Shown here: piece by piece, positions 41,501 to 61,914 of the stretch
Numbering within the stretch: position 1 is the stretch's first letter
Layout of the letters: each line of letters begins with the position of its first letter
NCBI GenBank assembly: GCA_037442205.1
Contig: JBBIQS010000033.1
Span: 1 to 64,000 of the forward strand
DNA: 64,000 bases
Source: Myxococcales bacterium
GTDB taxonomy: Bacteria > Myxococcota > Myxococcia > Myxococcales > UBA5297
Reading direction: 5' to 3'
The notes under the pieces: model-generated
Told to the model about the DNA's origin: nothing
What the model saw: only the letters and a program-made list of their open reading frames with translations
The model's database searches: none
Made by a program: the position numbers and the translations under genes

Positions 41501-42323
41501 TCCCGCGCCGACGGTCGTTTCGCTCGCGACCCTGTGCCTCGCCGCGCTGTCGGCCAGCGAGGGCAACGCCGCCTACTTCGTCGGCCCGTGCAACGGGCAG
41601 GGAGGCGTCACCAGCGTGCAGTCGGGGTACGCCTTGCTCCGCCCTTCGCCCGGAGGCTCGCTGCAAGGGGTGGCACCGGTGGCGCTGGCGGCGCCGGCGA
41701 CCGGAAACACGCTCGAAAGCTGGAGCGCGCCCGCGGTGTCGGCGAACTTGGTCGCTTGGCGGGAGCGAACCTCCAGCTGGGCTCAGGATCTCCGCATCCA
41801 GACCATCGGCGGCGCGCCGCCTGCGCTGTCAGCCACTGCCACCAGCTTCGCCTGCTGGCGCGTGCAGGCTTCCGCGGGGCTGCCGGGGAGCACCATCTGC
41901 GACGTGTCGGGCAACTGGCCCACCTCCGGCTCAGGGCTGAGTTGGCAGGCCGCGTCCGGTTGGAACCTGGCGCTCCTGATCTCCGGCCGGCTCTTCTTCT
42001 ACGACGGCGGCCCGGGGGGCATCTACCTTTCCCCCTTTGGGAACACCGCCGTCGGCTACGAGGTGCCGCTCGGACCGCTGGTTCCCGACACCAGCGGCGG
42101 CAGCAGGAACGGGATCTCCTTCGCCGGCAACTACCTCGCGCTCATCGCCAGCTCGCCCACGCAGTCGGCGCAGGTCTTCCTGTGGGACAAGTCGAGCCAG
42201 GCGCTCATGCAGAGGACCACCCATTTCTCGGAGAAGAGAACGGTGCAGGTGGCGCCCTCGGGGCGGATGGTCTGGGGAGATACCCTGTTCGCCAGCCCCG
42301 CGACCTTCGTCTTCTTGCCTTGA
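35538..42323 (+). CDS. Giant (2261 aa) surface lipoprotein with about 17 carboxypeptidase-regulatory-like/Ig-like repeats and a Trp-rich C-terminal region
   Basis: Lipobox LAGAGC. Repeating roughly 85-aa modules G.V.L.G......GV.V.L......T..DG.W.L..VPPG.Y.L...K.GY. A Cys-containing middle part. C-terminal third has recurring TEPAWP..G.TV.DG.V.W motifs (propeller-like). Confidence 0.8.
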   Translation: MNRRLLLVAGLILAGAGCTSDVPHSNPYDPQSPTTAQAKSRLVGRVSLEGKGDADDRSGVRVALTALGLESSTVADGSWTLDQVPPGTWSLEVSKEGYRTGTIYPVVVTLDQGGAEVQVPAIGLQRSRGSVRGKALLEGEDVSAGISVSLSNGAGSGQTDATGEFVLSGIASGTYEVSYSKVAFRDVRVGNVVVAPDGTTVLAPVTLSSNPGSLSGRVIVRGAANSDGVLVTADGMTLGGHHNVVQVTTAADPSGQKPDGSFTLSNVAAGLYNVIFTKDNYITEQVSVAVTPEKESVLAPVTMTGAVGALTGTATLAGALDHSGIEVSLTPQPTTANPNPSVAAAAITDSAGTWRLEGLPVGNYDLLYKKRPGYQDKTGTATVVRDAVVSAGAVVLAEIPGEIRGRVLLEGFAAGADLSGTSVRLDGHPAVTTDAQGNYSVTGSGGAHLLHVTRTGYTEAKVQVAIAAGDILTLDDVTLAKARGSVFGILAVEERSDASGVLVTLSSATEPSFTALTDSRGAFRFSGVPVGTWQLDASLPNYLGIPTATATVAANLDTEAPSATAPAASRTLSLRRDAAILGTVHYSAGSDQSGVNADLSGADVNGVVVHLTARSDVSGAFSFTGLPPGGYRLSLALQDYEAADLGSVALAAGQTVTLGAASLSRSRGDAAGQFLLTGASSHDNIKVTLSGTGAIAGTTVSVLTDPLGNFSAAGLPVGTYSVAATKAPDWASQTGSLTVTRNAVGQLVGSPLSLTVISTASVAGKVTVEKGATAGTSVRLQGKDLRGVAVDLTAQSDATGAFLFSNLVGGDYQLGYSRTGFEATSSTAFRVASAAAVTAPDVVLRVLRGTVSGTVKLDPGTVVGFAVGTDFSGARVALLDETGAEVDRTVTDASGAFQFRAVAVSLVTGLSHTVNASLDHFKTASAQVQVAANGNTPVGPLTLLLQPGSMTGFAYLNDNVGNSGRNADSTGIAVSVSGVAYNGVTYSKASAGTAANGSWSIADLPPGTFDLHITSTDRACLGGGTFPVRSAVATAAASADCFDTLAPTGLTLVAAPAWTSATSLTLSLASPAVDNTKPTSNLRGYQYVKGRLPDWTAAAIVAQTPAQMIFSLDLNAENTLWVRAVDWLGNAGPASYAVVRQDSVAPATPVIHTPRTYLSATTTSVSLSGAEGDATFDSYLVCSSERPAAVACPALPDCALAKSPASFALSLTAGNRTCLWAQSRDMAGNTSALAGPTPVVCDVSRPGAPSISPVYDPSLYTVRAGSVDVFVAAGPVDAPLGDLNHPYRGVDYLEVDSGGGFVPLCAGCRSATDPNAWDPCSSTCTCADPALRCATVRSGGVSSRELRSINVPLVAGATNRISVRAVDLAGNIGDGASIIVGTEGTRVFAQGIGPQMAPRFYKNMVAYSNNGLASMAQLDARRVPLVTCSPAGEVAQMSFLRSQSCQGMSVAPESLAAIGQLGVYYIAQASTCVTPPCPSSDFKSIKRADLPGIASCMSGLEILGPTKTPGLLSSVQFFESVAVSGPVLAWVVADDWSAQVPDTKSVFWCQLDPTSKACSGAVHPLGAAAGPGHVAGLRAAGDWLFWASEVVSGANCQVGPQPPKYRWRASYVGAARAWTAGAAHAAGDLVWPTTPNGHAYRATSAGTSGATEPAWPVPVLPTASPGSGPTVADGTVVWTEMSWTLDAEQAAISADGKLIFTADNSQELPWTASTLFSAYALVKPTVANGFFYRATQTTGASSFSGRSGLAEPAWPTTMGATVVDNEITWTATVTTDHMAPPAVYRIRSAGPDGLWGTADDPAPAKNQGTREVARGGLAIEPGRAIVLSQTISGSSITDWEAAPDGTFKSDPTGGPSYLRHLSAGGAELSSPEIDHGLFVYAYGMNQTADLVAVDLSSQRWESSVSREDYQTIAEDGTVLVLRNDIVTRWLAVRDPDGSERTTLLADFAGYSGSTPPLAVTGKDVLYQVAGGIKILNAGPDGKLLTADDPAPTVVSLATLCLAALSASEGNAAYFVGPCNGQGGVTSVQSGYALLRPSPGGSLQGVAPVALAAPATGNTLESWSAPAVSANLVAWRERTSSWAQDLRIQTIGGAPPALSATATSFACWRVQASAGLPGSTICDVSGNWPTSGSGLSWQAASGWNLALLISGRLFFYDGGPGGIYLSPFGNTAVGYEVPLGPLVPDTSGGSRNGISFAGNYLALIASSPTQSAQVFLWDKSSQALMQRTTHFSEKRTVQVAPSGRMVWGDTLFASPATFVFLP

Positions 42324-48655: not shown

Positions 48656-49446
48656 ACGGCTGCCCCAATCCCTCGGAGTGGCTGCTGCTGGTCGACGGCC
48701 AGGTGTCGGAGGAGCGCGGGCGCCAGCTGCGCGGGCACGTCGAGGCGTGTCGCCAGTGCCGGTCGCGGCTGGCCGCGGAAGAGGAGCTGCTGCGCCGCCT
48801 GGCCCAACCGATTGCCGAGCCGTCGCCGGTTTCGGTGGAGCGGCTGATGGCGCGGCTCGATCAGGCGCCGCCGGTTCGGAGAAGCCCGCTCGGTTGGGTT
48901 GGCGCCGGGGCCTTGGCCGCGGCGCTGGCGACGGGCGTGCTGCTTGCCCCGCGCGGCGCGCCCGAGCTGCAGGCGCGAGGCGGCGAGCCCAGCGACGCGA
49001 TCGGCAAGCGGGCCGGCGTTCAGCTCCGGCGGGTGGACGATCCTTCGCGAGCGATCGAGCCGGGTGCGGCGGTGCCTGCCGAGGCGGCCTTCTTCGCCAG
49101 CTACCGCAACCTCGAGGCAGTGGAGCTCTACCTCGCCGCCTTCGGACTGGACGCATCGGGAGAGATCCACTGGCTCTATCCCGGGTTCGTCGATCCCGAC
49201 AGCGATCCGTTCTCGGTGCCGCTGTCGCCCGCGGAGGTGCCCAGCGCCCTGGGCGAGTCGGTGCGGCTCGAGTCGCCAGCGCCGGGGCCGATGAAGGTGC
49301 TGCTGCTGGTCACGCGGGCGCCGCTGCGCGTATCGCAGATCGAGTCCCTGCCTTCTACGCGGCTCACTGTCGGTTCCCTGCAAGCTCGCTTCCCCGACGC
49401 CTCTGTCGAGGAGCTTCCCCTCATCCTGACTCGGAGTTCCCCATGA
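48652..49446 (+). CDS. Zinc-binding (ZAS-type) anti-sigma factor with one TM and a periplasmic domain
   Basis: ATG overlaps the sigma-gene stop (ATGA). HVEACRQCRSRL is the H-x3-C-x2-C motif. TM LGWVGAGALAAALATGVLLA. About 150-aa C-terminal extracytoplasmic region. Confidence 0.65.
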   Translation: MNGCPNPSEWLLLVDGQVSEERGRQLRGHVEACRQCRSRLAAEEELLRRLAQPIAEPSPVSVERLMARLDQAPPVRRSPLGWVGAGALAAALATGVLLAPRGAPELQARGGEPSDAIGKRAGVQLRRVDDPSRAIEPGAAVPAEAAFFASYRNLEAVELYLAAFGLDASGEIHWLYPGFVDPDSDPFSVPLSPAEVPSALGESVRLESPAPGPMKVLLLVTRAPLRVSQIESLPSTRLTVGSLQARFPDASVEELPLILTRSSP

Positions 49447-51281
49447 CCTCGCTCGTGTCGCTCGCGCTCGGCCTGCTGGTCGCAGCAACGCCAGGCAAAG
49501 CGGATCCTCTGGTCCTGGCGCTCGTGGTCGGCAGCAACCAAGGCGCCGGACTCTCCCAGCCGCCGCTGCACTACGCCGACGACGACGCCGCCCGCTACCT
49601 TGAGACCTTCGAGGCCCTCTACGGGCCGGAGAGCGCGACTCTGCTCACCGCTTTCGACCGCGACAGCGCTCGGCTCTTCGGCCCTCTGGTCGACAAGGCG
49701 CGGGCTCCGACCAAGGCCAACGTGCTCGTCGCCGCGCAGGAGGTCGCTGCCAAGGCCAGAGCAGCCGAGGAGCGCGGGCGAGAGGTAGAGCTCTACTTCG
49801 TCTTCGCCGGCCACGGCGACGTCGATCGCGGCAGCGGCTTCCTGAGCCTGGCGGACGGCCCCTTCACCTCCGAGGACCTCGAGGGGCTGCTCAGGGCTTT
49901 TCCGGCGAAGCGCAAGCACGTCATCCTCGACAGCTGCAACTCGTTCTTCGTGATCAGCCCGCGCAGGCCGGGCGGGCGGCGGTTCGCCACTCCCTCCGAT
50001 GCCGCGCAGGCGCTCGCCCGCCGGATGCCGGAGGTCGGGGTCTTCCTCTCCACCAGCGCCGAGGCCGAGGTCTACGAGTGGTCCGAGCTCCAGTCGGGGA
50101 TCTTCAGCCACGCGGTGCGTTCGGGAATGTTGGGGGCGGCCGACGCCGATGGCGACGGCCAGGTCAGCTACGAGGAGCTGGCAGCATTCGTTGAGACCGC
50201 CGCGGCGCCGGTCAAGAACCCGCTGATGAGGCCCAAGGTCTACGCCCGCGGGCCCGGCGGCGATGACCGAAGCGCCATCTCCGCGCCGGCTCGCTCGGCC
50301 GCGCCGGCGCTGACCATCCACGAGCCCGGGCCGGTGCGCCTGACGGTGCGCGACGAGAGCGAGCTGCGCTGGCTGGACGTCCACGCCGAGCCGGGCGCCG
50401 AGGTGATCCTGCGGCTGCCGGCGGGCCTGGAGAAGGGGATGGTGATCGAGCGCGGGACTGCTTTGGGGAAGGAGCGCCTGGTGGCAGCCGCGGTGCCGGC
50501 CAGGCTGGAGCTGGGCGCCATGAGCTGGGCACCTCAGGAGGCCTCTTCGCGCTCGGCGCAGGAGCAGCTGCAGACCCTGTTCTCGCTGCCCTTCGGTGCC
50601 CGCGCGCTGGAGTCCTGGCGCGCCGAGCGTGCGGCGCAGCCGGAGCCGGTCTACGGGATCACGCGCGAGGACGGCGAGAGGATGGACCGTCTGCTGGGTC
50701 AGCTGGCGGACACCGACCGTTCGCGCCGGCTCAGCGCCGGAATCCTCTCGGCGGCTGGCGGCTTCGGGCTGGGGGTGCTGGGCGCGCTGTCGCTGCGCGA
50801 CGGCCACCGGGAGGGCTACGTCTTCCTGGGCACCGGTGCCGTGATGCTGGGTGTCTCGGCGCTCGCCTTCCTGCCGAGCAGCGGGGAGAAGGCCTGGGCT
50901 GCATTTCGGGAGGAGATGGCGGCCGGGACTGACCCGGTTCAGGTGGTCGCCAGGACCGAAGCGCGCCTCCAGGAGATGTTGGGCGGCGAGCGACTCGCCC
51001 GCCGGCTCAACGCAGTCACCGCCGGCCTGATGCTCGCCAGCGGCATCGGGCTGGTCGCGGTCAGTGAGTCCTCGTCGCGGCCGGATCGACCGACCGCCAC
51101 CGGCTTTGGAGTGGCCCTGGCGGCGCTTGGAGCCTCGATCGGCCTATCGAGCCTGCTGATGGAAACGCCGGTGGAGCGGGTGATCGGCATCTGGAACCAG
51201 GATCCTGGCATCGCCAAGATGCGCCTGGGCCTGGCGCCGGTGAACGGCGGCGGTCTGCTCTCTCTCAGCGGCGAGTTCTAG
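49443..51281 (+). CDS. Exported caspase-like (peptidase C14/metacaspase-type) protein with C-terminal TM hairpins
   Basis: ATG overlaps the anti-sigma stop (ATGA). Signal peptide MTSLVSLALGLLVAATPGKA. His-Gly dyad context YFVFAGHGD and Cys context HVILDSCNSFF, matching the caspase/metacaspase HG...D[SA]C[HN]S pattern. Four hydrophobic helices in the last roughly 170 aa. Confidence 0.7.
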   Translation: MTSLVSLALGLLVAATPGKADPLVLALVVGSNQGAGLSQPPLHYADDDAARYLETFEALYGPESATLLTAFDRDSARLFGPLVDKARAPTKANVLVAAQEVAAKARAAEERGREVELYFVFAGHGDVDRGSGFLSLADGPFTSEDLEGLLRAFPAKRKHVILDSCNSFFVISPRRPGGRRFATPSDAAQALARRMPEVGVFLSTSAEAEVYEWSELQSGIFSHAVRSGMLGAADADGDGQVSYEELAAFVETAAAPVKNPLMRPKVYARGPGGDDRSAISAPARSAAPALTIHEPGPVRLTVRDESELRWLDVHAEPGAEVILRLPAGLEKGMVIERGTALGKERLVAAAVPARLELGAMSWAPQEASSRSAQEQLQTLFSLPFGARALESWRAERAAQPEPVYGITREDGERMDRLLGQLADTDRSRRLSAGILSAAGGFGLGVLGALSLRDGHREGYVFLGTGAVMLGVSALAFLPSSGEKAWAAFREEMAAGTDPVQVVARTEARLQEMLGGERLARRLNAVTAGLMLASGIGLVAVSESSSRPDRPTATGFGVALAALGASIGLSSLLMETPVERVIGIWNQDPGIAKMRLGLAPVNGGGLLSLSGEF

Positions 51282-51285
51282 GGGA

Positions 51286-54200
51286 TCAGAGCGCGAGCGC
51301 CACCGTGGGGCCGGCGAACAAGTAGCCGCGCTGGGCGCCGGCCGGGGCGGTGAAGAACCAGGTTCCTGGAACCTCGAGCCCGAGCGAGAGCCAGCGGGTC
51401 AGCGAAACCTGCACCCCGGCGCTCCCTCCGATGCCAGCGGCGACGGATCGGGCAAAGAGGACCGGGACCTCCAGGGCCAGCACCGGCCGCACCTTCCCCT
51501 GGGCGTTGAAGGGAACCCACTCCAGCCGCGCCAGCAGGCCCATCTGCCCGGTGACCAGAACGCCGGCGCTGGCGGTCAGCGACTGCAACAGCCGGTAGCC
51601 CACGGTCGCGGCGACCGCGCCGCCGCGCTCCTGCGCCAGCATCACTTCGAGCCTCGCCTGGATCACCGTCCGCCCCGCCGACGCCTTCGTTCGCGCCACC
51701 GGCGAGGGACCGAACAGGCCAACTGCCGCCTCCGCCGACATGTCCAGCAGCTCGTCCTCCGCCGATCCGTTGGACTGGGCGCTGTACCGCTTTTCCACCT
51801 GGGCCTTGTGGGCGTTGAAGAGCTGGGCGCTGAAGACCAGGGTGTCGCCCAGTCGGCCCAGGCTGGCGCTGAGCAGCTGGTCGACGCCCAGCGCGCCGCC
51901 GATCTCCGCCAGGCAGCCGCTGTCGGAGCAGCCGATGAGCTGGCGCTGCCGCTCGTAGGAGAGAACGGCCTGCAGCTCCTTGGTGGAGACCACCCGCACC
52001 GTCGGCCGCTCCTGGATGCTGGCTAGAAACGAGGCGCTGACGATCTCCGCGACTCCCGATTCCACCCCGAGGCCGGCCTGCATTCCCAGGAAGGCCACCT
52101 TCACCGCCTTGGGCTTGGCCGGCGATGCGACCGGCGCAGCGGCGGCCTCGGCAGCCGGCGCGCTCGGAGCTGGCGGAGGAGCCGGCTGGGCGCTGGCGGC
52201 TGGCGGAGGTATCGGAGAAGCCGGGGGCGAGGTCGAGGCGTCCGCGGCAGGGGCGGTCGCGGCCGCCGGCGGCGTAGGAGGCTCGGGCGCCTTCTTCGCC
52301 GCCGCAGCCGGCGGCTTGGGCTTGGCCGGTTTCGGCTTTTCCGCAGAGAACGCCATGGCCGGGATTAGCAGCGCGACAGCGAGCGCCGCGGCCGAGCGCC
52401 GCCGACGCAGTGCCACCAGGGCTCCGAGCGCTGCCAACAGCGGTCCGCCGCCGCCCGCGTTGCAGCCGCAGCGAGGGGGCGCGAAGAGGTTGGGGTCGGC
52501 CGCCGCCGGCCCTCCGACCTGGCAGGCGCCCTTCTCACAGTAGCCGCTGGCGCAGTCCTCGGCCGCGGCGCAGCCCTGTCCGGCGGCTCGCTTGCAGGTG
52601 CCCTGGCCGTCGCAGGAGCCGTCGCAACCCCTCCCGGCGAAGGTCTCGTTCTGCGGCACCGCGGTGCAGACCCCCAGGTGGCCCGGCAGCCCGCAGGCCA
52701 TGCAGCTGCCGGCGCAGTCCGAGTCGCAGCACACGCCATCGACGCAGCGACCGTCGGCGCACTCGGTGCCTCCAGTGCAGGGCACCCCGTTGCGCGCCTT
52801 GCACTTGCCGGCCCCGTCGCACGCCAGCGCCAGGCCGCCACAGTCGCGATCCTGCTCGCCGGCCGGGACGAAGGCGCACTGGCCCTCCTTGCCCGGCAGA
52901 TTGCAGGAGCGGCACTGGCCGGCGCACGAGTTCTCGCAGCAGACGTTCCCCACGCACTGGCCGGTGACGCACTGGGACCCGTCTCCGCACGGCTGCCCCT
53001 GCCGCCACAGGCAGGCCCCGGCTCCGTCGCAGGCCTGGGCGCCGACGCAGGCCTTGCCGTCGCCCTGGCCGCGCGGGACGCTGCTGCAGATGCCCTGGCG
53101 CTCGGGGACGTTGCAGGCCTGGCAGGCCCCGGCGCAGGCGCTGTCGCAGCAGAAGCCATCGATACAGTGTCCCGACAGGCATTCCGCCGCCGACTGGCAG
53201 ATCTGCCCGGACGGCTTCATGGCGCAGCCGCCGCTGCCGTCGCAGGCGTTGGGGGCGGCGCAGGTGTCGGGGTCGAGCTGCCCCTTGGGCACCGGCGAGC
53301 AGCGGCCGATCGATCCGGGCACGTTGCAGGCCTGGCAGGTGCCGGTGCAGGCGCCCTCGCAGCAGACCCCGTCCACGCACTGGCCGCTGGCGCACTTCGA
53401 TTTGTCCGAGCAGGGCTGGCCAAGGCTGGCGCAGGCGCCCTCGCAGCACTTGCCGTCGACGCACGATCCGCTCAGGCACTCGCTCGGTCCGGCGCAGCTC
53501 TGTCCGGCAACCTTGAGGCAGGCTCCGGCGCCGTCGCAGACCGCCGGGGCCAGGCAGGTGTCGAGATCGGCCGCTCCCCTCGGCACCGGGGTGCAGCTGC
53601 CGAGCTTGTTCGGGACGTTGCACGCCTGGCAGATCCCGGTGCAGGCGCTGTCGCAGCACTGGCCGTCGACGCAGAAGCCGCTCAGGCAGTCGGCGGGCGA
53701 GGCGCAGGCCTGGGCCGCCACCAGCTTGCAGACCCCGGCGCCGTCGCAGGCCCGCGGCGCGGCGCAGGCCGGCGCGCTCAGCCCGGCCGGGACCGGGAGG
53801 CACTTGCCCAGGTTGCCGGCCAGGCTGCAGCTCTCGCAGGGGCCGGCGCAGGCCGCGTCGCAGCACAGCCCGCCGGCGCAGAAGCCGGAGAGGCACTCGC
53901 CATTGGCGGCGCAGGCCTGGGCGGCGGTGAGCTTGCAACTCCCGCTCCCGTCGCAGGACTTGGGGGCGGCGCAGGTGTCGGGGTCCGGGGCGCCGGCGGC
54001 GACCGGGGTGCAGGTCCCGCGGCGCCCGACCAGATTGCACGCCTGGCAGGTGCCGCCGCAGGCGCCGTCGCAGCAGAGCCCGTCGACGCAGAAGCCGCTG
54101 GCGCACTGGCTGGCGCCGGTGCAGGCGCTGCCGGCCACCAGCAGGCATTTGCCCAGCCCGTCGCAGGCGTTGGGGGCGGCACAGCTGGCGGTGGTCTGTC

Positions 54201-57200
54201 CGGCGGCGACGTCGGCGCAGCTCCCCAGCTTCCCCGGCAGGTTGCAGGCCTGGCAGGGGCCGCAGCTACCCCCGCAGCAGACCCCGTCGGCGCAGCGCCC
54301 CGAGGCGCAGTCGGCCCCGGTCGCACAGGCCTGGCCGTTGGCCAGCTTGCAGGAGCCGAAGCCGTCGCAGGACTGCGTCGCCAGGCAGCCGCGCGCGGAG
54401 AACTGCGGCGCCGGCCCGCAGGCCCCCTGGTGCTGCGGGTTGTTGCAGGCCAGGCAGGCTCCGGTGCAGGGCAGGTCGCAGCAGAAGCCGTCGGCGCAGA
54501 AGCCGGTCTGGCACTCCGAGGCCGCGGCGCAGGGCTGGCCCGAGAGCTTCTTGCAGGCGCCGGCGCCGTCGCAGGCCGCGGTGCCGCTGCAGCCGGAGCG
54601 CGCGGGCTGGCCGGCCGGGGTCGGGACGCACATTCCAGGGACGGGGGCCACGTTGCAGGACTGGCAGGTCGCGGCGCAGGCGCTCTGGCAGCAGACCCCG
54701 TCCACGCAGAAGCCGCTCAGGCAGTCCGAGCCGGCGGCGCAGGGCTGCCCGGAGCGCAGCCGGCACAGGCCGGTGCCGTCGCAGGCGCGCGACAGGGTGC
54801 AGGTGCGGCCGTCCTCGGCGCCGGCGGTGACGCTCAGGCAGATCCCGGGGGTCGGGGCGAGGTTGCAGGCCTGGCAGGTCCCGCAGACCGAGGCGCAGCA
54901 GACCCCGTTGACGCAGTGGCCGGAGGTGCACTGGACGTCGGCAGTGCAGGGACCGCCGACGACCCCCTTCCCGATCTGCATTGGGGCGGCGACGCTCGGG
55001 ATTCCGGCGGTGGTGACGAAGAGCAGGTAGTGGCCGATTCCGAGTCCGGCGGGGAGCTTGGCGGTGAGGGTGGAGTCGTCGAACGAGCTGGCCGGAAAGC
55101 GGTGCAGCCCGGAGCCGTCGGCGGGCATCAGGGTGAGCACCGGTAGGTCGGCGACGGCGCCGGACGAGGTGCCGCCGCTGGCGCCGGCGGGGCCGCGGAA
55201 GCCGGAGCCGGTGAGGGCGACGGTGTCGCCGGGAGCCGCCCAGGCCGGAGCGGTGGCGATGGTCGGGCGAGCCGGAGCGAAGACGTCCAGCCCGGGATCC
55301 GAGAGCAGCGCCTCAGTGGTGGTCGCGCCGTTGGTGGTGCCGACCAGGAGGGCAGCGGCGCCCGGCATCAGGAGCGCTGCCTGGAGCAGGTGGGCGTTCT
55401 CCATCGGGATCGTCGGGCGCCAGGTCTCGGTCTGCGGATCGTAGAACTCCGCCGAGGCATTGGACATGGTCGAAGCGTTGGTCGGCGGGAAGTAGATCGG
55501 CGGTGCGGCGCCTGCCACCAGCACCTTGCCGGTGGGGAGCAGGACGGCGGAGTGGCCTACGCGGGGAAAGGTCATCGGGGCGGTGAACGCCGAGGCTCCC
55601 TTGGCGGGGTCGAACAGCTCGGCCGAGGCCAGCGCGGCGCCGCTGGCGTCGACGCCACCGGCGACGAGCACCTTCCCCGACGGCAGCAGGGTCAGGGTCG
55701 GGTCGCCGGTGATGCGCAGGGTGCGCAAGTATCCGGCGATGGACCAGCTGTTGGTGGTCGGGTCGTAGATCCGGAACGAGCCGTCGGTGCGGTGCAGGCC
55801 CAGCACCTTGCCGTCGGCGAGCCGTAGCATCTGGCTGACGCAGGTCAGGGTCGCCGAGGTGGTGGCGGTGAAGGACCCGGTGGAAGGATCGAAGATATCG
55901 TGAGTGTAGTCGCAGCTGGTGGCGCCGCCGGCGATCAACACCCTGCCGTCGGCCAGCGCGACGGCAGAATGGCGGAATCGGGCGACCGCCATCGGGCCGG
56001 TGGTCGGCGTCCAGGAGTTGGCGGTCGGGTCGTAGATTTCAGCGGTGCTGACTTGCTGGAAGTACGAGAGGCCGCCGCCGGTCACCAGCACCTTGCCGGT
56101 GGGCAGCAGCGTGGCGGTGAACGGGGACGGGCGCGGATCTCGATCTAGCGGATCGACGCGCACGGTCCCCATCGAGGCCGCCCGGGTGAAGGTGCCGGTC
56201 GCCGGGTCGAAGATCTCCGCCGAGCTGATGGTCCCCGACCCCAGGATCAGCGCCTTCCCCCCAGGGAGCGGAGTGGCGGCAAGCGGCCTGAGCAGCTGGG
56301 TCATCGGTGCCGGCCGACGCCAGCCTCCGACCTGCTCGCGGTAGAGCTCGGCGGCGGCGGTGGCGGGGGCGGTCCCGGGGTTGCCGCCCGCCATCAGGAT
56401 GCTCCCGTCGTGCAGCACCGCCGCCGAAAAGGTCATCCGAGCCAGCGCGAGGCCGGGCGAGGGGAGCCAGCGGTCGACCCCGGGATCGTAGAGCTCGACG
56501 CTGGCAGTCATCGGGCCGGTGAGGCCGGGCTGGCCGCCGGCGACCGCCACCCTCCCGCTGGGCAGCGTGAGTGCGACGTGCTTGTAGCGGGCCTGGGCCA
56601 GCCCCGGCGCCGCGGTCCAGGACGAGGTCTTCGGGTCGTAGATCTCCGCAGTGGCCACGCGGTTGCCGGCGGCGTCCTCGCCGCCCGCCACCAGGACCCT
56701 CCCGTCCAGGAGCAGGCTCGCGGTGTGCGAGGCGCGCCCGGCCGCCAGCGGGCCGGCGAGCGCCCAGGCGCCAGCGGGGCCGGCGGCCGGATCGAAGACC
56801 TCGCAGCTCGCCAGGACCGTGCCCGCCCGGCCGCCGGCGAGCAGGACCTTGCCCGTGGAGAGCCGGGTGAGCGTGCCGCCGATGCGGGGAGCATTCATCG
56901 GCGGCGTGGACACCCAGGTTCCGGTGTTCGGGTCGAGCAGCGACGCCCCCGAGGCGGTCACCGCCAGGATGCGCCCGTCGGCGAGCAGCGCCGTGGTCCG
57001 ATAGGCGGCCAGAATGGTGGGTCCCAGCGCGGACCACAGGTTGGTTGCCGGGTCGTAGATCTCGGGCTGGATCGACTGCGTGGAATAGGGCGGGAAGGGG
57101 ATCACTTCGGCCGGAATCTTCACCACCCGGCCATCGGCGAGCAGGTGTGCGGAGTGCCCCACCTCCGGATACACCATCGAGCCCGCCGGCGCCCAGGAGC

Positions 57201-58956
57201 CGGTGGCCGGGTCCAGCAGCTCGGCGGTGGCGGTGACGGTAGTGCCGTCAGTGTATCCGCCGGCGACCAGCACCTTGCCGGAGGCGAGCACGGTCATCGA
57301 GGCGCCCTTCCTGGGAATGGCCATCGAGTTGACCGGGGTAACGGCGGGGTCGACCGTGTACCTCTCGGACGACGACAGGGCGGCGCCGGCGGCCTTGCCT
57401 CCGAGCACCAGCACGTCGCCGCTGGCGAGCACCGCCGCCGAGGCCTGCTGGCGCGCTGCCTTGAGCGGCACCGATTGCCAGAACCCCTTGGAGAGCCCGT
57501 CGTAGAGCTCGGTGCTGGCCAGGGACGCAGCGCCGTCGCTGCCGCCCAGCAGCAGCGCTTTGCCGGAGGGGAGCAGCACCGACGCATGGGCGCGGCGGCC
57601 GGTCACCAGGCCGGAGGCCGTGGCAGCCCAGGTGCCCTTGGCCTCGTCAAAGAGCAGGGCGCTGGCCAGGACGTCGGTCCCGGTGCTGGTGCCGCCGGCG
57701 ACCAGCACCCCGCCGGTGCGCAGGCGGGTGGCGCTGTGCTCGGAGCGGGGGGAGGGGAGGTTGGCCGCGGTCCAGCTGCCGGTGGCCGGGTCGTAGAGGT
57801 CGGCGTTGGCCACCGGGCCGGAGGCAATCGTTCCGCCGACGACCAGCACCCGCCCGTCGCCGAGCCGGGCCGCTGCCGCGCGCGCGCGCGGGGCGATGCT
57901 CCCGGCGGCCGAGAAGCTGCGCTTGGTGGGATCGTAGAGCTCGGCGAGACCGGCGGCGTCGCCTCCGGCAATCAGCACCCTGCCGTTGGCCAGCAGGGTG
58001 GCGGTGGCGAAGCTGCGCGGCGCGGCCATGGGAGCGGTGGCGGTCCAGGCGCGCAGCACCGGGTCGAAGGTCTCGCAGCTGGCGTTGCCACCGCCGCAGA
58101 CGAGCAAGGTTCCGTTGCCCAGCAGCGTGGCGGTCGCGCCCAGGTGGCCGACGGCCATCGGGCTCGGTTCGGCGGTCCAGGTTCCGGCGAGTGGCTCGTA
58201 CCAGTCGCAGCGGGCCAGCGCGGTGGTCCCGTCGGCGGTGCCGCCGCAGGCGAGCAGCCGCCCGTCGCTCATCAGCGCCAGGGCCTGGTCGTAGCGCGCC
58301 TGGCCGAAAGTGCCCACTGTCGTCTCCCAGGAGGGATCGAGCAGGATTGGCGCCTCCAGTCCCGAGGTGTCGAGGGCGATGGTGAGCTGGTCTCCTTCGA
58401 TCGAGAGGCTCGCCTCCGTCCGGCGGCCCCTGGCGTCGAGTGCCCAGGGCGGCGCCAGGCGCAGGCGCGCCATCCCCGAGTCGTCCACCACCTCGCCGCT
58501 GGGGAGCAGCCGGCCCCCATCGACAATCACCTGGTAGTCGAAGCGGCGCGGCGCACTCGGCCCCCGCAGGAACAGCAGTTCCTCGTAGCGCCCGGGGCTC
58601 GCCACCTGGACGACGTCGGTGTCCGAATAGGCGTCGCGGAAGACCGTGGCCGCGCCGTCGCTGGCTGCGGCGGCGACGCTCGCTCCCAGCGCGCGAACCT
58701 GAAGCTCGAGGCCGGCCGCCGACAGCCGGAGCGGGGCCTCGGCAGAGGCGGGCGGAGCCCCCACCACGTCGGCAGAGCGCCCGGTGGGCAGGCGTTCGTC
58801 CGCTCGGCTTTGCAGGCGGTCGGCGGCGGCGGGGAAGCGCTCTCGCAGCTGCTGGAGGAAGTGCTCGGCGCGAGTGCGGTCAGGGTCTCGGCAGGCGCTC
58901 CCGGCCAGGGTCAGCAGCGCGGCGAGGGCAATCGCCGCGCGAGCATGGCGTGGCAT
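51286..58956 (-). CDS. Giant (2556 aa) secreted protein: Kelch-type beta-propeller repeats, about 11 Cys-rich tandem modules, an internal MYXO-CTERM-like segment, and a 368-aa C-terminal lipoprotein/beta-rich domain
   Basis: Signal peptide. Recurring LL.DGRVLV.GG...LYDP....W Kelch motifs over about 1100 aa. Roughly 70-aa modules C.SG.C.DG.CC...C.G.CQ.CN.PG..G.C.PV. The segment RCGCNAGGGGPLLAALGALVALRRRRS is followed in frame, with no stop, by AAALAVALLIPAMAFSAEKP and a further domain. Confidence 0.75.
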   Translation of the reverse strand: MPRHARAAIALAALLTLAGSACRDPDRTRAEHFLQQLRERFPAAADRLQSRADERLPTGRSADVVGAPPASAEAPLRLSAAGLELQVRALGASVAAAASDGAATVFRDAYSDTDVVQVASPGRYEELLFLRGPSAPRRFDYQVIVDGGRLLPSGEVVDDSGMARLRLAPPWALDARGRRTEASLSIEGDQLTIALDTSGLEAPILLDPSWETTVGTFGQARYDQALALMSDGRLLACGGTADGTTALARCDWYEPLAGTWTAEPSPMAVGHLGATATLLGNGTLLVCGGGNASCETFDPVLRAWTATAPMAAPRSFATATLLANGRVLIAGGDAAGLAELYDPTKRSFSAAGSIAPRARAAAARLGDGRVLVVGGTIASGPVANADLYDPATGSWTAANLPSPRSEHSATRLRTGGVLVAGGTSTGTDVLASALLFDEAKGTWAATASGLVTGRRAHASVLLPSGKALLLGGSDGAASLASTELYDGLSKGFWQSVPLKAARQQASAAVLASGDVLVLGGKAAGAALSSSERYTVDPAVTPVNSMAIPRKGASMTVLASGKVLVAGGYTDGTTVTATAELLDPATGSWAPAGSMVYPEVGHSAHLLADGRVVKIPAEVIPFPPYSTQSIQPEIYDPATNLWSALGPTILAAYRTTALLADGRILAVTASGASLLDPNTGTWVSTPPMNAPRIGGTLTRLSTGKVLLAGGRAGTVLASCEVFDPAAGPAGAWALAGPLAAGRASHTASLLLDGRVLVAGGEDAAGNRVATAEIYDPKTSSWTAAPGLAQARYKHVALTLPSGRVAVAGGQPGLTGPMTASVELYDPGVDRWLPSPGLALARMTFSAAVLHDGSILMAGGNPGTAPATAAAELYREQVGGWRRPAPMTQLLRPLAATPLPGGKALILGSGTISSAEIFDPATGTFTRAASMGTVRVDPLDRDPRPSPFTATLLPTGKVLVTGGGLSYFQQVSTAEIYDPTANSWTPTTGPMAVARFRHSAVALADGRVLIAGGATSCDYTHDIFDPSTGSFTATTSATLTCVSQMLRLADGKVLGLHRTDGSFRIYDPTTNSWSIAGYLRTLRITGDPTLTLLPSGKVLVAGGVDASGAALASAELFDPAKGASAFTAPMTFPRVGHSAVLLPTGKVLVAGAAPPIYFPPTNASTMSNASAEFYDPQTETWRPTIPMENAHLLQAALLMPGAAALLVGTTNGATTTEALLSDPGLDVFAPARPTIATAPAWAAPGDTVALTGSGFRGPAGASGGTSSGAVADLPVLTLMPADGSGLHRFPASSFDDSTLTAKLPAGLGIGHYLLFVTTAGIPSVAAPMQIGKGVVGGPCTADVQCTSGHCVNGVCCASVCGTCQACNLAPTPGICLSVTAGAEDGRTCTLSRACDGTGLCRLRSGQPCAAGSDCLSGFCVDGVCCQSACAATCQSCNVAPVPGMCVPTPAGQPARSGCSGTAACDGAGACKKLSGQPCAAASECQTGFCADGFCCDLPCTGACLACNNPQHQGACGPAPQFSARGCLATQSCDGFGSCKLANGQACATGADCASGRCADGVCCGGSCGPCQACNLPGKLGSCADVAAGQTTASCAAPNACDGLGKCLLVAGSACTGASQCASGFCVDGLCCDGACGGTCQACNLVGRRGTCTPVAAGAPDPDTCAAPKSCDGSGSCKLTAAQACAANGECLSGFCAGGLCCDAACAGPCESCSLAGNLGKCLPVPAGLSAPACAAPRACDGAGVCKLVAAQACASPADCLSGFCVDGQCCDSACTGICQACNVPNKLGSCTPVPRGAADLDTCLAPAVCDGAGACLKVAGQSCAGPSECLSGSCVDGKCCEGACASLGQPCSDKSKCASGQCVDGVCCEGACTGTCQACNVPGSIGRCSPVPKGQLDPDTCAAPNACDGSGGCAMKPSGQICQSAAECLSGHCIDGFCCDSACAGACQACNVPERQGICSSVPRGQGDGKACVGAQACDGAGACLWRQGQPCGDGSQCVTGQCVGNVCCENSCAGQCRSCNLPGKEGQCAFVPAGEQDRDCGGLALACDGAGKCKARNGVPCTGGTECADGRCVDGVCCDSDCAGSCMACGLPGHLGVCTAVPQNETFAGRGCDGSCDGQGTCKRAAGQGCAAAEDCASGYCEKGACQVGGPAAADPNLFAPPRCGCNAGGGGPLLAALGALVALRRRRSAAALAVALLIPAMAFSAEKPKPAKPKPPAAAAKKAPEPPTPPAAATAPAADASTSPPASPIPPPAASAQPAPPPAPSAPAAEAAAAPVASPAKPKAVKVAFLGMQAGLGVESGVAEIVSASFLASIQERPTVRVVSTKELQAVLSYERQRQLIGCSDSGCLAEIGGALGVDQLLSASLGRLGDTLVFSAQLFNAHKAQVEKRYSAQSNGSAEDELLDMSAEAAVGLFGPSPVARTKASAGRTVIQARLEVMLAQERGGAVAATVGYRLLQSLTASAGVLVTGQMGLLARLEWVPFNAQGKVRPVLALEVPVLFARSVAAGIGGSAGVQVSLTRWLSLGLEVPGTWFFTAPAGAQRGYLFAGPTVALAL
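52470..54980. repeat. Coding tandem repeats (about 11 units of roughly 210 nt) encoding the Cys-rich modules of the giant protein
   Basis: Periodicity is evident in the translated sequence. It generates long spurious plus-strand ORFs (52592..55030, 52678..55146) through shared wobble positions. Confidence 0.5.
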
Positions 58957-59188
58957 GGCTGCTCCAATGGATGGATGGCGGGCAAGAAAGCGACGACATC
59001 CTACCTTCCCCAGCAGGCGGAGTGGGGTTCACTTGTTTGCCTTGTTTGGAATGCAAAACAGCGGCGGCTCCTCGGGCGCGACGGGGCCGCGGCCAACTGA
59101 GGAGCCGCCGAAAGCGGCAGCGAGAGCGGCACTCCCGTCCGGCGTCAGGGCGGCCGGCTGCGAAATGGAGCGCGCCGCGTCGCGGGAG

Positions 59189-59806
59189 CTACCTGGAGAC
59201 GCGCAGCGCCACCTCGTCGCCGGTGCGGGCGTTGGTCAGGCGCAGAGCCACGAACTTGGCCTTGACGCCCTGCAGCTTCTCCTTGCCCTTGCCCGGCAAG
59301 GTCCAGATCCCCAGCGGCCTGAACACCAGGTGGATCTTGAGGTTGCCGGTGCGGATCATCCGGTCCATGTCCATCGGCATCCAGTCGTTGGGCAGTTGGA
59401 CGTCGAGCGGCATCAGCGGCACCCGCGGGTTGCCGTTGGCGTCCTGGCCCACCGGCGCGCCCTCGGTCAGCGCCAGGCCGTTGCCCTCGAAGAACGGGGT
59501 CAGCTGCAGCTTGTACTGGCGGGTGGCGGGGTTGAAGCTGCCGGCCTGGATCATCCGCGAGGCTGCGTCGCCCAGGATCACGTGGAAGCTCTTGCCGGTC
59601 AGCTCGGCGCGGACCTTCTTGGCGTTGGCCTCGCACTCGCGCTTCTCCAGCGAGGCGCCGCACTCGCCGACGTACTTGTCGAGGAACGAGGTGAGGCTGT
59701 CCAGGCTCTCGGCGGCGTCGCGCAGCTTGGCGAACTCGGGCGGGGCCTCGCCCAGGGCAGGAGTCGCCAGCGTCAGCATCAGCAGCGCGGGAAGGCAAGG
59801 CCTCAT
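59189..59806 (-). CDS. Secreted hypothetical protein
   Basis: Start at M41 of the ORF with GGAGGA RBS. Signal peptide MRPCLPALLMLTLATPALGEA. 205 aa. Confidence 0.5.
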   Translation of the reverse strand: MRPCLPALLMLTLATPALGEAPPEFAKLRDAAESLDSLTSFLDKYVGECGASLEKRECEANAKKVRAELTGKSFHVILGDAASRMIQAGSFNPATRQYKLQLTPFFEGNGLALTEGAPVGQDANGNPRVPLMPLDVQLPNDWMPMDMDRMIRTGNLKIHLVFRPLGIWTLPGKGKEKLQGVKAKFVALRLTNARTGDEVALRVSR

Positions 59807-59960
59807 GAAGTCGTTCCTCCAAAGCAAGGGGTCGTTGCCTTGTACCGCAACTGGCCGTTCACTTTCGACGGAGGGCGGTGTGTGCCGGGGTGCGTCATGG
59901 TAGCTTTTTTGACTACATCTGCGCACCCGCTACAGTGAGCTCAAACGTCGGAGGTGAGCA

Positions 59961-60329
59961 GTGAAAGAGCGCAGAGACTCGATCCGGTTCGACAAGGCCT
60001 TCACGGTCTACCTCGCGGGCGAAGAGGGAATGACCCGAGGGATCGCCCGAAACATCAGCGACGGCGGCATGTTCATCGAGACCCGCGAGCCGTACCGGCT
60101 GGGGGCGCGGATCAAGGTGACCTTCGTGTCGCCGGAAAATGGGACCGAGATCACAGTGGTGGGCGAGGTCCGCTACCAGTGCTTCCTGTCCTACGGCGCC
60201 GACAACAACGGCGAGAACCAGCTGCGGGGCATGGGCGTGCGCTTCGTGGAGATCGCCGAGTCGGAGCAAGGGCTGACCCAGCCGCTGGCCGGGGCCGCCG
60301 GCGCCGAGCGCAGCCGGGTGTTCCACTGA
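59961..60329 (+). CDS. PilZ-domain protein
   Basis: GTG start with GGAGG RBS. RRDSIR ... NISDGGMF are the c-di-GMP-binding RxxxR and D/NxSxxG PilZ motifs. Confidence 0.7.
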   Translation: MKERRDSIRFDKAFTVYLAGEEGMTRGIARNISDGGMFIETREPYRLGARIKVTFVSPENGTEITVVGEVRYQCFLSYGADNNGENQLRGMGVRFVEIAESEQGLTQPLAGAAGAERSRVFH

Positions 60330-60381
60330 GCCGGAGCGGGGAGCGGGCGGCGGGCCGGCAGCAGGCCTGCCGACTTCGTAG

Positions 60382-61914
60382 CTAGCTGTGGGAGAAGCCT
60401 TCGAGCGTGTAGTGCGACGAGATCCGCTTGAGGGCCAGGACCATCGCCGCCAGCCGCAGGTCGCACTCCTTGCCGACGGCGAAGGGGCGCGAGTCGTGCA
60501 GGTCGGAGCGCGACGGTGAGTTGGCGGCGATGTCGCGGATGATCCGGTAGTTGGCGCGCAGCGTCCGCTCCAGGCGGCTGACCACGTCCTGCTCGGACCA
60601 GTGCTCCATGCGCTGGTTCTGCAGCCACTCGTAGTAGCTGACAGTGAGCCCGCCGGCGTTGGCGATGACGTCGGGGATCAGGTCGATGCGCCGGGCGTAG
60701 AGGATCTCGTCGGCCTCGGGCAGGCAGGGGTTGCTGGCGGCCTCGGCCACCACCTTGACCTTGAGGCGCTGGGCGATCTCGCCGGTGATCTCGCCGCCCA
60801 GGGCGGCGGGGATCAGCACGTCGGCCGGCAGCTCGAAGAAGTCCTTCTTGGAGATGGCGCTGGCCAGCGGGAAGCCCGCCACGGTCTTCTTGAGATTGGC
60901 CGGGTTGTCGAAGACGTGGCGCAGCAGCGCGTCGACGTCGATGCCGTCGGGGTTGTAGATGGTGCCGAAGGCGTCGTTGATCGCCACCGGGCGCATCCCG
61001 GCCTGGGCCAGCACCACCGCGGCGTTGGAGCCGACGTTGCCGAAGCCCTGCAACAGGAAGCTCTTGCCCTTGAGCGACTCGCCGCGGCGCTGGGCCCACT
61101 CGTCGAGGCAGTAGCTCAGCCCCATGCCCACCGCGCGGTGCCGCCCCTCGGAGCCGCCGATGCGGATGTCCTTGCCGGTGACCGCCCCGCGCACCCGGTG
61201 GCGCTCGCGCTCCCCGTCGGTGAACTGGCGGAGCATGATCGCCATGGTCTCGGAGGTGGTGCCGACCTCGGGAGCCAGGATGTCGAGCTCGGGGCCGACC
61301 AGGCGCTTGAGCCGGTACATGTAGCGCAGGCTGATCTGCTCCAGCTCCTCCTTGCCGTAGGCCAGGGGGTCGATCTTGATCCCGCCCTTGGCCCCGCCGA
61401 AGGGCAGGTCGACGATGGCGCTGCTCCAGGTGACGCGGGCGGCCAGCGACTTGAACAGGTCGAGGGAGACGTCCTTGTGGAATCGGACGCCGCCCTTGTA
61501 CGGGCCGCGGGCCTGGTTGTGCTGGACGCGGTAGGCCTTGAAGCGCTTGACCTGGCCGGGCTCGAGGCGGAACAGGGAGCCGCCGGGCAGGCGGATGACG
61601 CCCTGGCGGATGGTGACGTCGGAGCCAAGCAGGGCGCGGCCTTTGAGGAGCAGGGTGCCGTCGGCGAGGTGCTCGAGGGCGTTGGGGTCGCGCAGCACCG
61701 AGGCCGGCAGGTCGGCGAAGCGCGGCTGCTCGGAGTCGGGGACCGGGACCAGCCGGTCCTTGAGCCTGACCGTGACGTAGAAGATGTGCTCGTAGTCCGG
61801 CTCCTCGAGCTCGAGGCGGACGCGGTGGTCGAGGGTGACCAGGTCGGCGGCGCGATGGAAGATCTCCATCGAGTCGGTGTAGACGGTCCGCTTGTGACCT
61901 TCGCGCGCGCGCAT
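60382..61914 (-). CDS. Glutamate dehydrogenase (Glu/Leu/Phe/Val dehydrogenase family) with an N-terminal extension
   Basis: FGGAKGGIKIDP catalytic lysine motif. Rossmann GFGNVGSNAA. The start could instead be M16 (61869). Confidence 0.85.
   Translation of the reverse strand: MRAREGHKRTVYTDSMEIFHRAADLVTLDHRVRLELEEPDYEHIFYVTVRLKDRLVPVPDSEQPRFADLPASVLRDPNALEHLADGTLLLKGRALLGSDVTIRQGVIRLPGGSLFRLEPGQVKRFKAYRVQHNQARGPYKGGVRFHKDVSLDLFKSLAARVTWSSAIVDLPFGGAKGGIKIDPLAYGKEELEQISLRYMYRLKRLVGPELDILAPEVGTTSETMAIMLRQFTDGERERHRVRGAVTGKDIRIGGSEGRHRAVGMGLSYCLDEWAQRRGESLKGKSFLLQGFGNVGSNAAVVLAQAGMRPVAINDAFGTIYNPDGIDVDALLRHVFDNPANLKKTVAGFPLASAISKKDFFELPADVLIPAALGGEITGEIAQRLKVKVVAEAASNPCLPEADEILYARRIDLIPDVIANAGGLTVSYYEWLQNQRMEHWSEQDVVSRLERTLRANYRIIRDIAANSPSRSDLHDSRPFAVGKECDLRLAAMVLALKRISSHYTLEGFSHS

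Follow-up and report, generated by a model that had tools for sequence, protein, structure and literature searches.

MYXO-CTERM sorting signals, in which a Cys motif is followed by a hydrophobic helix and a cluster of Arg residues, are expected at the extreme C-terminus of a protein, which raises the question of why one of them lies inside the product of a gene of a Myxococcales bacterium (assembly GCA_037442205.1). The gene is encoded on the reverse strand of the 64,000-nucleotide stretch analyzed here (contig JBBIQS010000033.1, positions 1 to 64,000; hereafter the window). An earlier reading of this DNA, made from the sequence alone and without database searches (the sequence-only reading), had proposed that the Arg tail of this internal signal also supplies the n-region of a signal peptide, which would belong to a domain following in frame, and had left four explanations open: loss of a stop codon fusing two genes, a sequencing or assembly error, a two-product locus with internal initiation at a GTG codon, or a protein processed at the MYXO-CTERM signal that releases its C-terminal module. 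Our analysis established the architecture of the gene, its conservation, the folds of its downstream module and the existence of split-gene counterparts. We infer that the locus is probably an ancient, selectively maintained fusion of two genes, the product of which would be a single precursor cut at two places into two envelope proteins that reach different final locations and act as partners.

Re-translation of the locus returned one uninterrupted open reading frame (ORF) of 2556 amino acids, with no stop codon after the sorting signal, as had been claimed. Its layout, including the two hydrophobic segments flanking the Arg cluster (TM1 and TM2, for transmembrane segments 1 and 2), is as follows:

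51286..58956, (-) strand: whole fused ORF, 2556 amino acids plus stop; stop codon at 51286..51288
58891..58956, (-) strand: N-terminal Sec signal MPRHARAAIALAALLTLAGSAC, probably of lipoprotein type (by inspection)
55387..58329, (-) strand: Kelch beta-propeller region of the passenger, approximate limits (Pfam Kelch_1/4/6 and related models, E down to 1e-59)
52507..55086, (-) strand: stalk of the passenger, built of Cys-rich tandem repeats, approximate limits (from the translation)
52393..52473, (-) strand: internal MYXO-CTERM-like sorting signal RCGCNAGGGGPLLAALGALVALRRRRS, residues 2162-2188 (TIGR03382/TIGR03901)
52462..52470, (-) strand: Cys motif of the internal MYXO-CTERM
52408..52443, (-) strand: TM1 of the internal MYXO-CTERM
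52396..52407, (-) strand: Arg cluster of the internal MYXO-CTERM
52351..52395, (-) strand: TM2 SAAALAVALLIPAMA, h- and c-region of the internal signal peptide (from alignment with stand-alone signal peptides)
between 52351 and 52350, (-) strand: predicted signal peptidase I cut after AMA
52414..52416, (-) strand: in-frame GTG (Val in TM1), possible internal start, with GGAG 5 nucleotides upstream
52117..52350, (-) strand: low-complexity linker rich in Ala, Pro and Lys, ~78 amino acids
51712..52116, (-) strand: periplasmic alpha/beta domain with a TolB-N/PelC/CsgG/LpoB-like fold and the Cys pair GCSDSGC
51289..51669, (-) strand: 8-stranded outer-membrane beta-barrel

The internal element has the composition of a genuine sorting signal. 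When trimmed after the Arg tail it scored 23.5-23.7 bits with TIGR03382, the NCBIfam 'GC_trans_RRR' MYXO-CTERM model (cut-off 15.85 bits), and the profile search thus bore out the architecture read from the letters alone. The signature Cys, often within GCGC in such tags, is present in RCGCNAGGGG, shortly before TM1, and is followed by the uncharged hydrophobic helix PLLAALGALVAL and then by RRRR. The Sec signal that MYXO-CTERM proteins carry at their N-terminus was also found by inspection; it reads LTLAGSAC-RD in the window protein, and orthologues have the canonical lipobox LAGC (LAGC-RD in L003 and LAGC in P0008, two relatives described below). A Sec or lipoprotein signal was likewise recognized by inspection at the N-terminus of all complete fused members of the family. 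If the N-terminal signal is a lipoprotein signal, the mature passenger would be lipid-anchored at both ends.

What sets this protein apart is the position of the signal. After RCGCNAGGGGPLLAALGALVALRRRRS the frame runs on without a stop into SAAALAVALLIPAMA, then FSAEKPKP and 354 further residues; 368 in-frame residues lie beyond the Arg tail (RRRRS), and the signal is not at the extreme C-terminus either here or in the orthologues. TM2 fits, by rule and by eye, the layout of a signal peptide for signal peptidase I, with RRRRS as basic start, AAALAVALLI as hydrophobic core and PAMA before the Phe at which the released chain would begin. Its h-region comprises only ~10 residues, and the hydrophobic core of TM1 ~12. 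TM2 aligned with the N-terminal signal peptides of stand-alone homologues (P0001-P0005), and two module genes described below, P0019 and P0026, begin with signal peptides of their own. An AxA motif closes TM2 in 32/32 junctions, and a Pro or Gly frequently stands a few residues before it. In the fused protein TM2 lies inside the translation product and not at its N-terminus, and L003 lacks a counterpart of the candidate GTG start. The proposal that the Arg cluster of the internal MYXO-CTERM doubles as the n-region of a signal peptide for the downstream module is supported by these alignments.

The fusion is real and it is old. The Logan assembly of run SRR11582159 is 100.000% identical to positions 50954..61518 of the window over 10,565 bp and encodes the identical 2556-amino acid protein. 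The sole orthologous locus found among GTDB species genomes, in an Archangiaceae metagenome-assembled genome (JBBIOE010000169, 1038..8819; L003), encodes 2593 amino acids with the same layout, and its junction, ...DPNLFSLPRSCGAAPDAPLWVALGALGLLTRRRRSAALLTLAVLVPALALAGDK..., is likewise free of stops; its tag scored 22.9 bits with TIGR03901 (cut-off 20 bits). The alignment of orthologues proposed as a check by the sequence-only reading therefore gave no stop after the Arg tail. The two genes have diverged considerably (synonymous divergence, dS, about 0.65-0.8). The ratio of nonsynonymous to synonymous divergence (dN/dS) between them is 0.33 in the Cys-rich repeats, 0.35 at the junction, 0.34 in the alpha/beta domain, 0.33 in the barrel and 0.57 in the linker, with amino acid identity of 71% in the Cys-rich repeats and 40% in the linker. 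Since dN/dS is similar on both sides of the junction, both halves are subject to purifying selection of equal strength and in one frame. On these substitution rates, the gene is best described as an old fusion under purifying selection, not as a pseudo-fusion.

The last 376 amino acids of the protein, which correspond to the product that would start at the GTG, matched no Pfam or NCBIfam model. It should be noted that this GTG (52416..52414) is in frame, as previously described, but that its product has 376 and not 368 amino acids. A search with this 376-residue query, including the Ala/Pro linker, was swamped by the linker and returned 5 matches only; an exhaustive HMMER search was run instead with the 276 residues that follow the low-complexity linker, which retrieved 6044 relatives at E<=1e-3 from 1.84 billion cluster representatives. 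An AlphaFold2 model of the module, built on 39 aligned relatives (mean predicted local distance difference test score, pLDDT, of 92.6; a single-sequence model with pLDDT 39.9 was discarded), places an alpha/beta domain at module residues 1-135 and eight beta-strands at 150-275. In this model the alpha/beta half resembles the folds of TolB (score 12.1), PelC (11.3), CsgG (11.0) and LpoB (10.8), and the eight antiparallel strands form a closed barrel of the OmpA-TM/OprF-N/NspA type. Sequence identity to the TolB-N, PelC, CsgG and LpoB folds and to the OmpA, OprF and NspA barrels is 9-16%, and no solved chain matched as a whole the combination of alpha/beta domain and barrel in one small protein. 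The LpoB/CsgG/FlgO-like alpha/beta domain had thus been guessed correctly from the letters, but the outer-membrane barrel that follows it had been missed.

The Cys pair GCSDSGC is kept in at least 90% of 150 representatives of the family, which fits a periplasmic disulfide. The window protein gave no match to PF13505 (OMP_b-brl), for which the relatives P0169 and P0176 have a match on record, nor to PF11684 (DUF3280), which is matched weakly by 3/22 fused relatives (best E 6e-6); PF00691, the OmpA/MotB peptidoglycan-binding domain, was absent from the whole fused protein in the Pfam scan. Named fused members are annotated as 'hypothetical protein [Myxococcales bacterium]' or 'TolB-like protein'. 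The metagenome loci that we retrieved (L012-L091) mostly encode small stand-alone secreted alpha/beta-domain proteins without a barrel, some with tandem duplications of the domain. These barrel-less relatives make up a large uncharacterised family, variously labelled 'TolB-like', and say little about the barrel-containing subfamily.

To describe the junction across the family, we surveyed the best 150 of the 6044 relatives as representatives of 50%-identity clusters. In nineteen of them a barrel is detectable and the module is preceded by 150 residues or more; 18/19 have the hairpin junction (15 detected by regular expression and 3 by eye), in which an aromatic or small residue-Cys motif leads, via a Gly-rich stretch, to the hydrophobic helix, the Arg cluster, a second hydrophobic segment and AxA, in that order. 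The junction also occurs in further diverged or partial sequences, ~30 of these 150 representatives in all, and is shared by L003, P0007, P0008 and more than 25 other clusters. The Cys is near-invariant across 27 junction peptides and 22 fused proteins, and, after trimming behind the Arg cluster, 23/27 junction peptides match TIGR03901 at E<=0.01 (best E 5e-7) and 15/27 match TIGR03382. The passengers are mutually unrelated: Kelch domains are found in 10/22, and the others are of Big_9/cadherin-like, TIG/DUF7948, DUF1565 or Cys-rich types, the latter without Pfam matches. The linker varies in length from ~3 to ~80 residues, P0014 apart, and in P0015 and P0017 the alpha/beta domain begins ~3-10 residues past the AxA.

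Some family members depart from this pattern. P0043 (1013 amino acids) is the lone exception among the 19; it keeps the Cys motif, MYSCSCS, and has lost the TM-Arg-TM hairpin, and its passenger and module would remain covalently joined after export. In P0014 (1942 amino acids) the internal signal peptide is separated from the alpha/beta domain by a helical-looking insert of ~190 residues rich in Ala, Lys and Glu (residues ~1510-1700). The closest relative of the window module, P0007 (locus L011, 9001..11124; 71% identity), is a 5'-truncated copy: what is left is the end of the Cys-rich repeat array, then the junction and the module. An N-terminal signal is missing, and the frame is closed by a stop immediately upstream. 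This copy, whose neighbours are sugar-nucleotide genes, could be a relic or the product of a rearrangement, or the metagenome contig that carries it could be chimeric. P0158, initially taken as a stand-alone module, was set aside; the fused junction is present in its ORF, which runs off the end of the contig.

Two loci were identified in which the two halves of the fused gene are separate neighbours. In L010, a gene encoding a Cys-rich protein ends in a terminal tag, ...NPFACNCDAGSGTPLLVLGILGLRAIVRRRPVSKA* (the asterisk marks the stop; TIGR03382, 18.7 bits), and is followed after a 74-nucleotide gap by P0026, a module gene whose product starts with the signal peptide MLKHFRVGIALLVLASSIATAADLKI. 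The order is reversed in L004, where the module gene P0019 (MTSWHFFAVCWLVVAAPVRAEEP...) comes first and, 8 nucleotides later, a partner gene encodes a 945-amino acid secreted protein ending in FQPGCGCGSGGEPVVALMTLLGLIRRGRRPARA*, a terminal MYXO-CTERM. When the tails of 2817 ORFs from 87 loci were searched with a profile built from the junction peptides, these two partner genes were the only matches. The sequence-only reading had asked whether the downstream domain is a separate gene in relatives, which it is in these two loci. Stop-codon loss, one of its four explanations, is right as the history of the locus, but the result is an old and selected fusion and not a pseudo-fusion. Fused in one genome and neighbours in another, the surface lipoprotein and the small outer-membrane barrel protein are linked functionally by Rosetta-stone evidence and, on this genomic context, probably act as partners.

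Within the fetched loci, the family's large branch with the alpha/beta domain only showed no link to a MYXO-CTERM gene. One distant homologue, P0003 (L001), of a subfamily that lacks the barrel, has no MYXO-CTERM partner, and the 483-amino acid protein encoded downstream of it carries no such tail. In the P0170 loci (L005-L008), on four independent contigs, the stand-alone module gene is preceded, at a distance of 2.4 kb, by a gene for an Rce1-like/CPBP protease (PF02517, to which myxosortase also belongs), for example at 2696..3565 in L005.

Taking these observations together, we propose a route from two genes to one precursor. The parent genes, found as neighbours elsewhere, would have encoded a MYXO-CTERM surface protein with Kelch propellers and a Cys-rich stalk, and an outer-membrane partner with a signal peptide, a TolB-N/PelC-like domain and an 8-stranded barrel. 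With the fusion, the sequence between the genes and one of their two basic clusters would have been lost, so that the helix of the sorting tag, a single Arg cluster and the core of the partner's signal peptide now form a helical hairpin. In the proposed pathway, the N-terminal lipoprotein-type signal would start Sec export of the ~2140-residue passenger, TM1 would stop transfer, and RRRR, shared by both signals, would remain in the cytoplasm. TM2 would then restart export of the C-terminal module, with signal peptidase I predicted to cut after AMA and the barrel of the module to be inserted into the outer membrane. The Cys of the passenger would be lipidated and TM1 removed by myxosortase, as in the published model of MYXO-CTERM processing, in which the type II secretion system brings the protein to the cell surface (PMC11980579). 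The outcome would be two envelope proteins at a 1:1 ratio, probably acting together like TraA and TraB.

The explanations that dispense with one or both cuts have to be weighed against this pathway. In one of them, which we consider unlikely, the protein stays a single polypeptide, either fixed in the inner membrane through TM1-RRRR-TM2, its two large parts both lying in the periplasm, or with the barrel of the window protein reaching the outer membrane on its long Ala/Pro linker. Two hydrophobic segments around a basic loop are indeed a classical positive-inside hairpin, and the ~78 residues of the window linker could span the periplasm; the hydrophobic cores of ~12 and ~10 residues are nevertheless short for stable transmembrane helices, TM2 aligns with the cleavable signal peptides of the stand-alone homologues and retains the AxA, and the sorting tag keeps its Cys across the family. 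As the module ends in an outer-membrane barrel, it has to get out of the inner membrane; in P0015 and P0017 the spacing between AxA and alpha/beta domain is too short for a barrel in the outer membrane to remain tethered to the inner one, so that a permanent tether is implausible there. It is quite unlikely that a single cut is made, whether signal peptidase I frees the module and the passenger stays on an uncleaved TM1, or myxosortase cuts and the hairpin stays in the inner membrane with the module. The presence of MYXO-CTERM proteins at the cell surface is reduced, and not abolished, without the myxosortase MrtX in the experiments reported by Guo et al. (PMC11980579), which would leave room for an uncut passenger, but the Cys motif and the AxA end are both conserved family-wide, and other systems process internal tags of the LPXTG and PGF types, according to the works cited there (PMC11980579).

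The two remaining explanations had been raised by the sequence-only reading. Separate translation of the module from the GTG at 52416, with VALRRRRSAAALAVALLIPAMA as signal peptide, could take place besides or instead of excision from the precursor, and in the former case is compatible with, and not exclusive of, the two-cut pathway. The window has an SD-like (Shine-Dalgarno-like) GGAG 5 nucleotides upstream of the GTG, and TM1 of a further fused gene, L009, also contains in-frame GTG codons. However, L003 has no in-frame ATG, GTG or TTG in TM1 or before the Arg cluster, so that initiation there does not hold as a conserved feature; moreover, GTG is a common Val codon at 71% G+C, and a full-length read-through product would be made anyway in the absence of a stop codon. 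We therefore give this two-product scheme little chance. An artefact or a functionless, recent loss of the stop codon is hardly credible. It is true that the gene is highly repetitive, that its G+C content is 71%, and that the 5'-truncated P0007 shows that such genes do get rearranged; sequencing or assembly error is excluded by the identical independent assembly and by orthologues at dS ~0.7, and the recurrence of the same junction in L003, P0007, P0008 and the other clusters, together with dN/dS ~0.33 downstream of the junction at dS ~0.65, speaks against a recent accident.

Several observations weigh against the two-cut pathway. The trimmed tag of the window protein scored 19.0-19.2 bits with TIGR03901, just under its cut-off; AxA is commonplace in Ala-rich sequence, which makes the 32/32 count weak when taken alone; and the window linker is long enough for an uncleaved tether across the periplasm in this particular protein. 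The fused protein ends in ...VALAL and not in the aromatic residue typical of outer-membrane proteins, although many relatives end in F or W, and the stand-alone module genes in the L037 and P0170 loci have no MYXO-CTERM neighbour. Even so, processing that releases the C-terminal module is the best-supported of the four explanations proposed earlier, judging from the barrel, which has to leave the inner membrane, and from the alignment and AxA of TM2. A further-reaching possibility, which we put forward only tentatively and think doubtful, is that the TolB-N-like plus barrel module serves specifically to dock its own MYXO-CTERM lipoprotein at the outer membrane or to export it, representing a general class of TraB-like partners, and that the fused genes encode a true bacterial envelope polyprotein, cut by myxosortase and signal peptidase I around a discarded hairpin to give cargo and partner at 1:1. 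If this were true, it would amount to a previously undescribed route of surface display, which might not depend on the type II secretion system alone.

Other genes of the window were analyzed as well. The ORF at 9960..11732 on the (+) strand encodes a 590-amino acid matrixin-like metalloprotease (PF00413) with a weak match to NF041905, 'myxosortase-dependent metalloprotease', and ends in a canonical terminal MYXO-CTERM, ...QGCGCGSAGAAPASLLGLAGLTGMLRGLRRRPARASC* (TIGR03901, 22.3 bits, over the cut-off of 20). Since this protease carries a canonical terminal tag, the organism appears to use the ordinary sorting pathway as well. The convergent neighbour of the fused gene (49443..51281, (+) strand), whose stop lies 4 nucleotides from that of the fused gene, encodes a protein with a caspase (Peptidase_C14) domain, an EF-hand and hydrophobic segments, with the tail ...LAPVNGGGLLSLSGEF*; a kinship of this tail with those of the alpha/beta homologues P0001-P0005 was considered and rejected as not significant (BLASTP E 0.1 against P0001). 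A giant envelope protein of 2261 amino acids with many beta-sandwich repeats of the CarboxypepD_reg, SdrD_B and PEGA types is encoded at 35538..42323 on the (+) strand.

Myxobacterial surface proteins belong mainly to the MYXO-CTERM class, whose protease, MrtX, was identified experimentally only in 2025. As to how MYXO-CTERM proteins are organised at the outer membrane, TraA/TraB is the only pair that has been studied. Our survey indicates that internal MYXO-CTERM tags are not one-off occurrences but form the stereotyped junction of a whole fused family with varied passengers. The junction offers a natural test substrate, both for the action of myxosortase on non-terminal tags and for the use of a stop-transfer and a re-initiating signal in making two bacterial envelope proteins from one chain. 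The module itself, with its 6044 relatives, was detected here by no Pfam or NCBIfam model, and its genes are at present called 'hypothetical' or 'TolB-like'.

A literature search returned no relevant precedent for bacterial internal signal peptides or polyproteins. The structural polyproteins of flaviviruses and alphaviruses are built from alternating stop-transfer and re-initiating signals and are cut by signal peptidase. They follow the same stop-transfer and re-initiation logic as proposed here, but belong to viral and eukaryotic endoplasmic reticulum systems. Some bacterial and archaeal sorting signals also work away from the C-terminus, such as LPXTG (Navarre & Schneewind 1994) and the signal of the Haloferax ArtA substrate (Abdul Halim et al. 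2017), both as cited in PMC11980579; like the window tag, these internal signals combine a motif, a transmembrane helix and a basic cluster, whereas the enzymes and the phyla differ.

The TraA/TraB pair, which is the receptor for outer-membrane exchange, resembles the fused gene in that a gene for a MYXO-CTERM protein with Cys-rich repeats lies directly upstream of the gene for an envelope partner with its own signal peptide, which is also the gene order of L010. TraA and TraB are encoded by separate, translationally coupled ORFs that overlap by 4 bases (PMC3325183), whereas the fused gene is a single ORF. The head of TraA is a PA14 domain and the window passenger has Kelch propellers; TraB combines an OmpA/MotB domain with a ~400-residue N-terminal region of no detected homology, and the window partner has no OmpA/MotB domain. 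In contrast to the TraA/TraB pair, the partnership of the two halves of the window protein is a proposal drawn from their fusion and from the split genes.

The closest known counterpart is MXAN_5598 of Myxococcus xanthus, described by Guo, Haft & Wall (mBio 2025; PMC11980579) as a large adhesin with an internal MYXO-CTERM, an outer-membrane barrel and an OmpA domain; Haft's in-silico paper leaves internal tags unmentioned. The 2025 paper likens MXAN_5598 to a fusion of TraA and TraB, proposes that this product of a two-gene fusion has its N-terminal part processed and surface-anchored (in its general model, by Cys lipidation and removal of the transmembrane helix by myxosortase), and, where it turns to internal motifs, terms them rare and gives this protein as the single example (PMC11980579). 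Compared by description, the window protein shares the adhesin-like N-terminal region, the internal MYXO-CTERM and the C-terminal barrel part, but it has no OmpA domain and carries a TolB-N/PelC/LpoB-like domain before its barrel. The passages of that paper devoted to MXAN_5598 mention no second hydrophobic segment or signal peptide, whereas the window family has a stereotyped hairpin at this point; unlike MXAN_5598 as described, the window junction is found family-wide and has split-gene counterparts. The fused gene thus represents a new, apparently common variant of a kind of protein that has been noted once in the literature.

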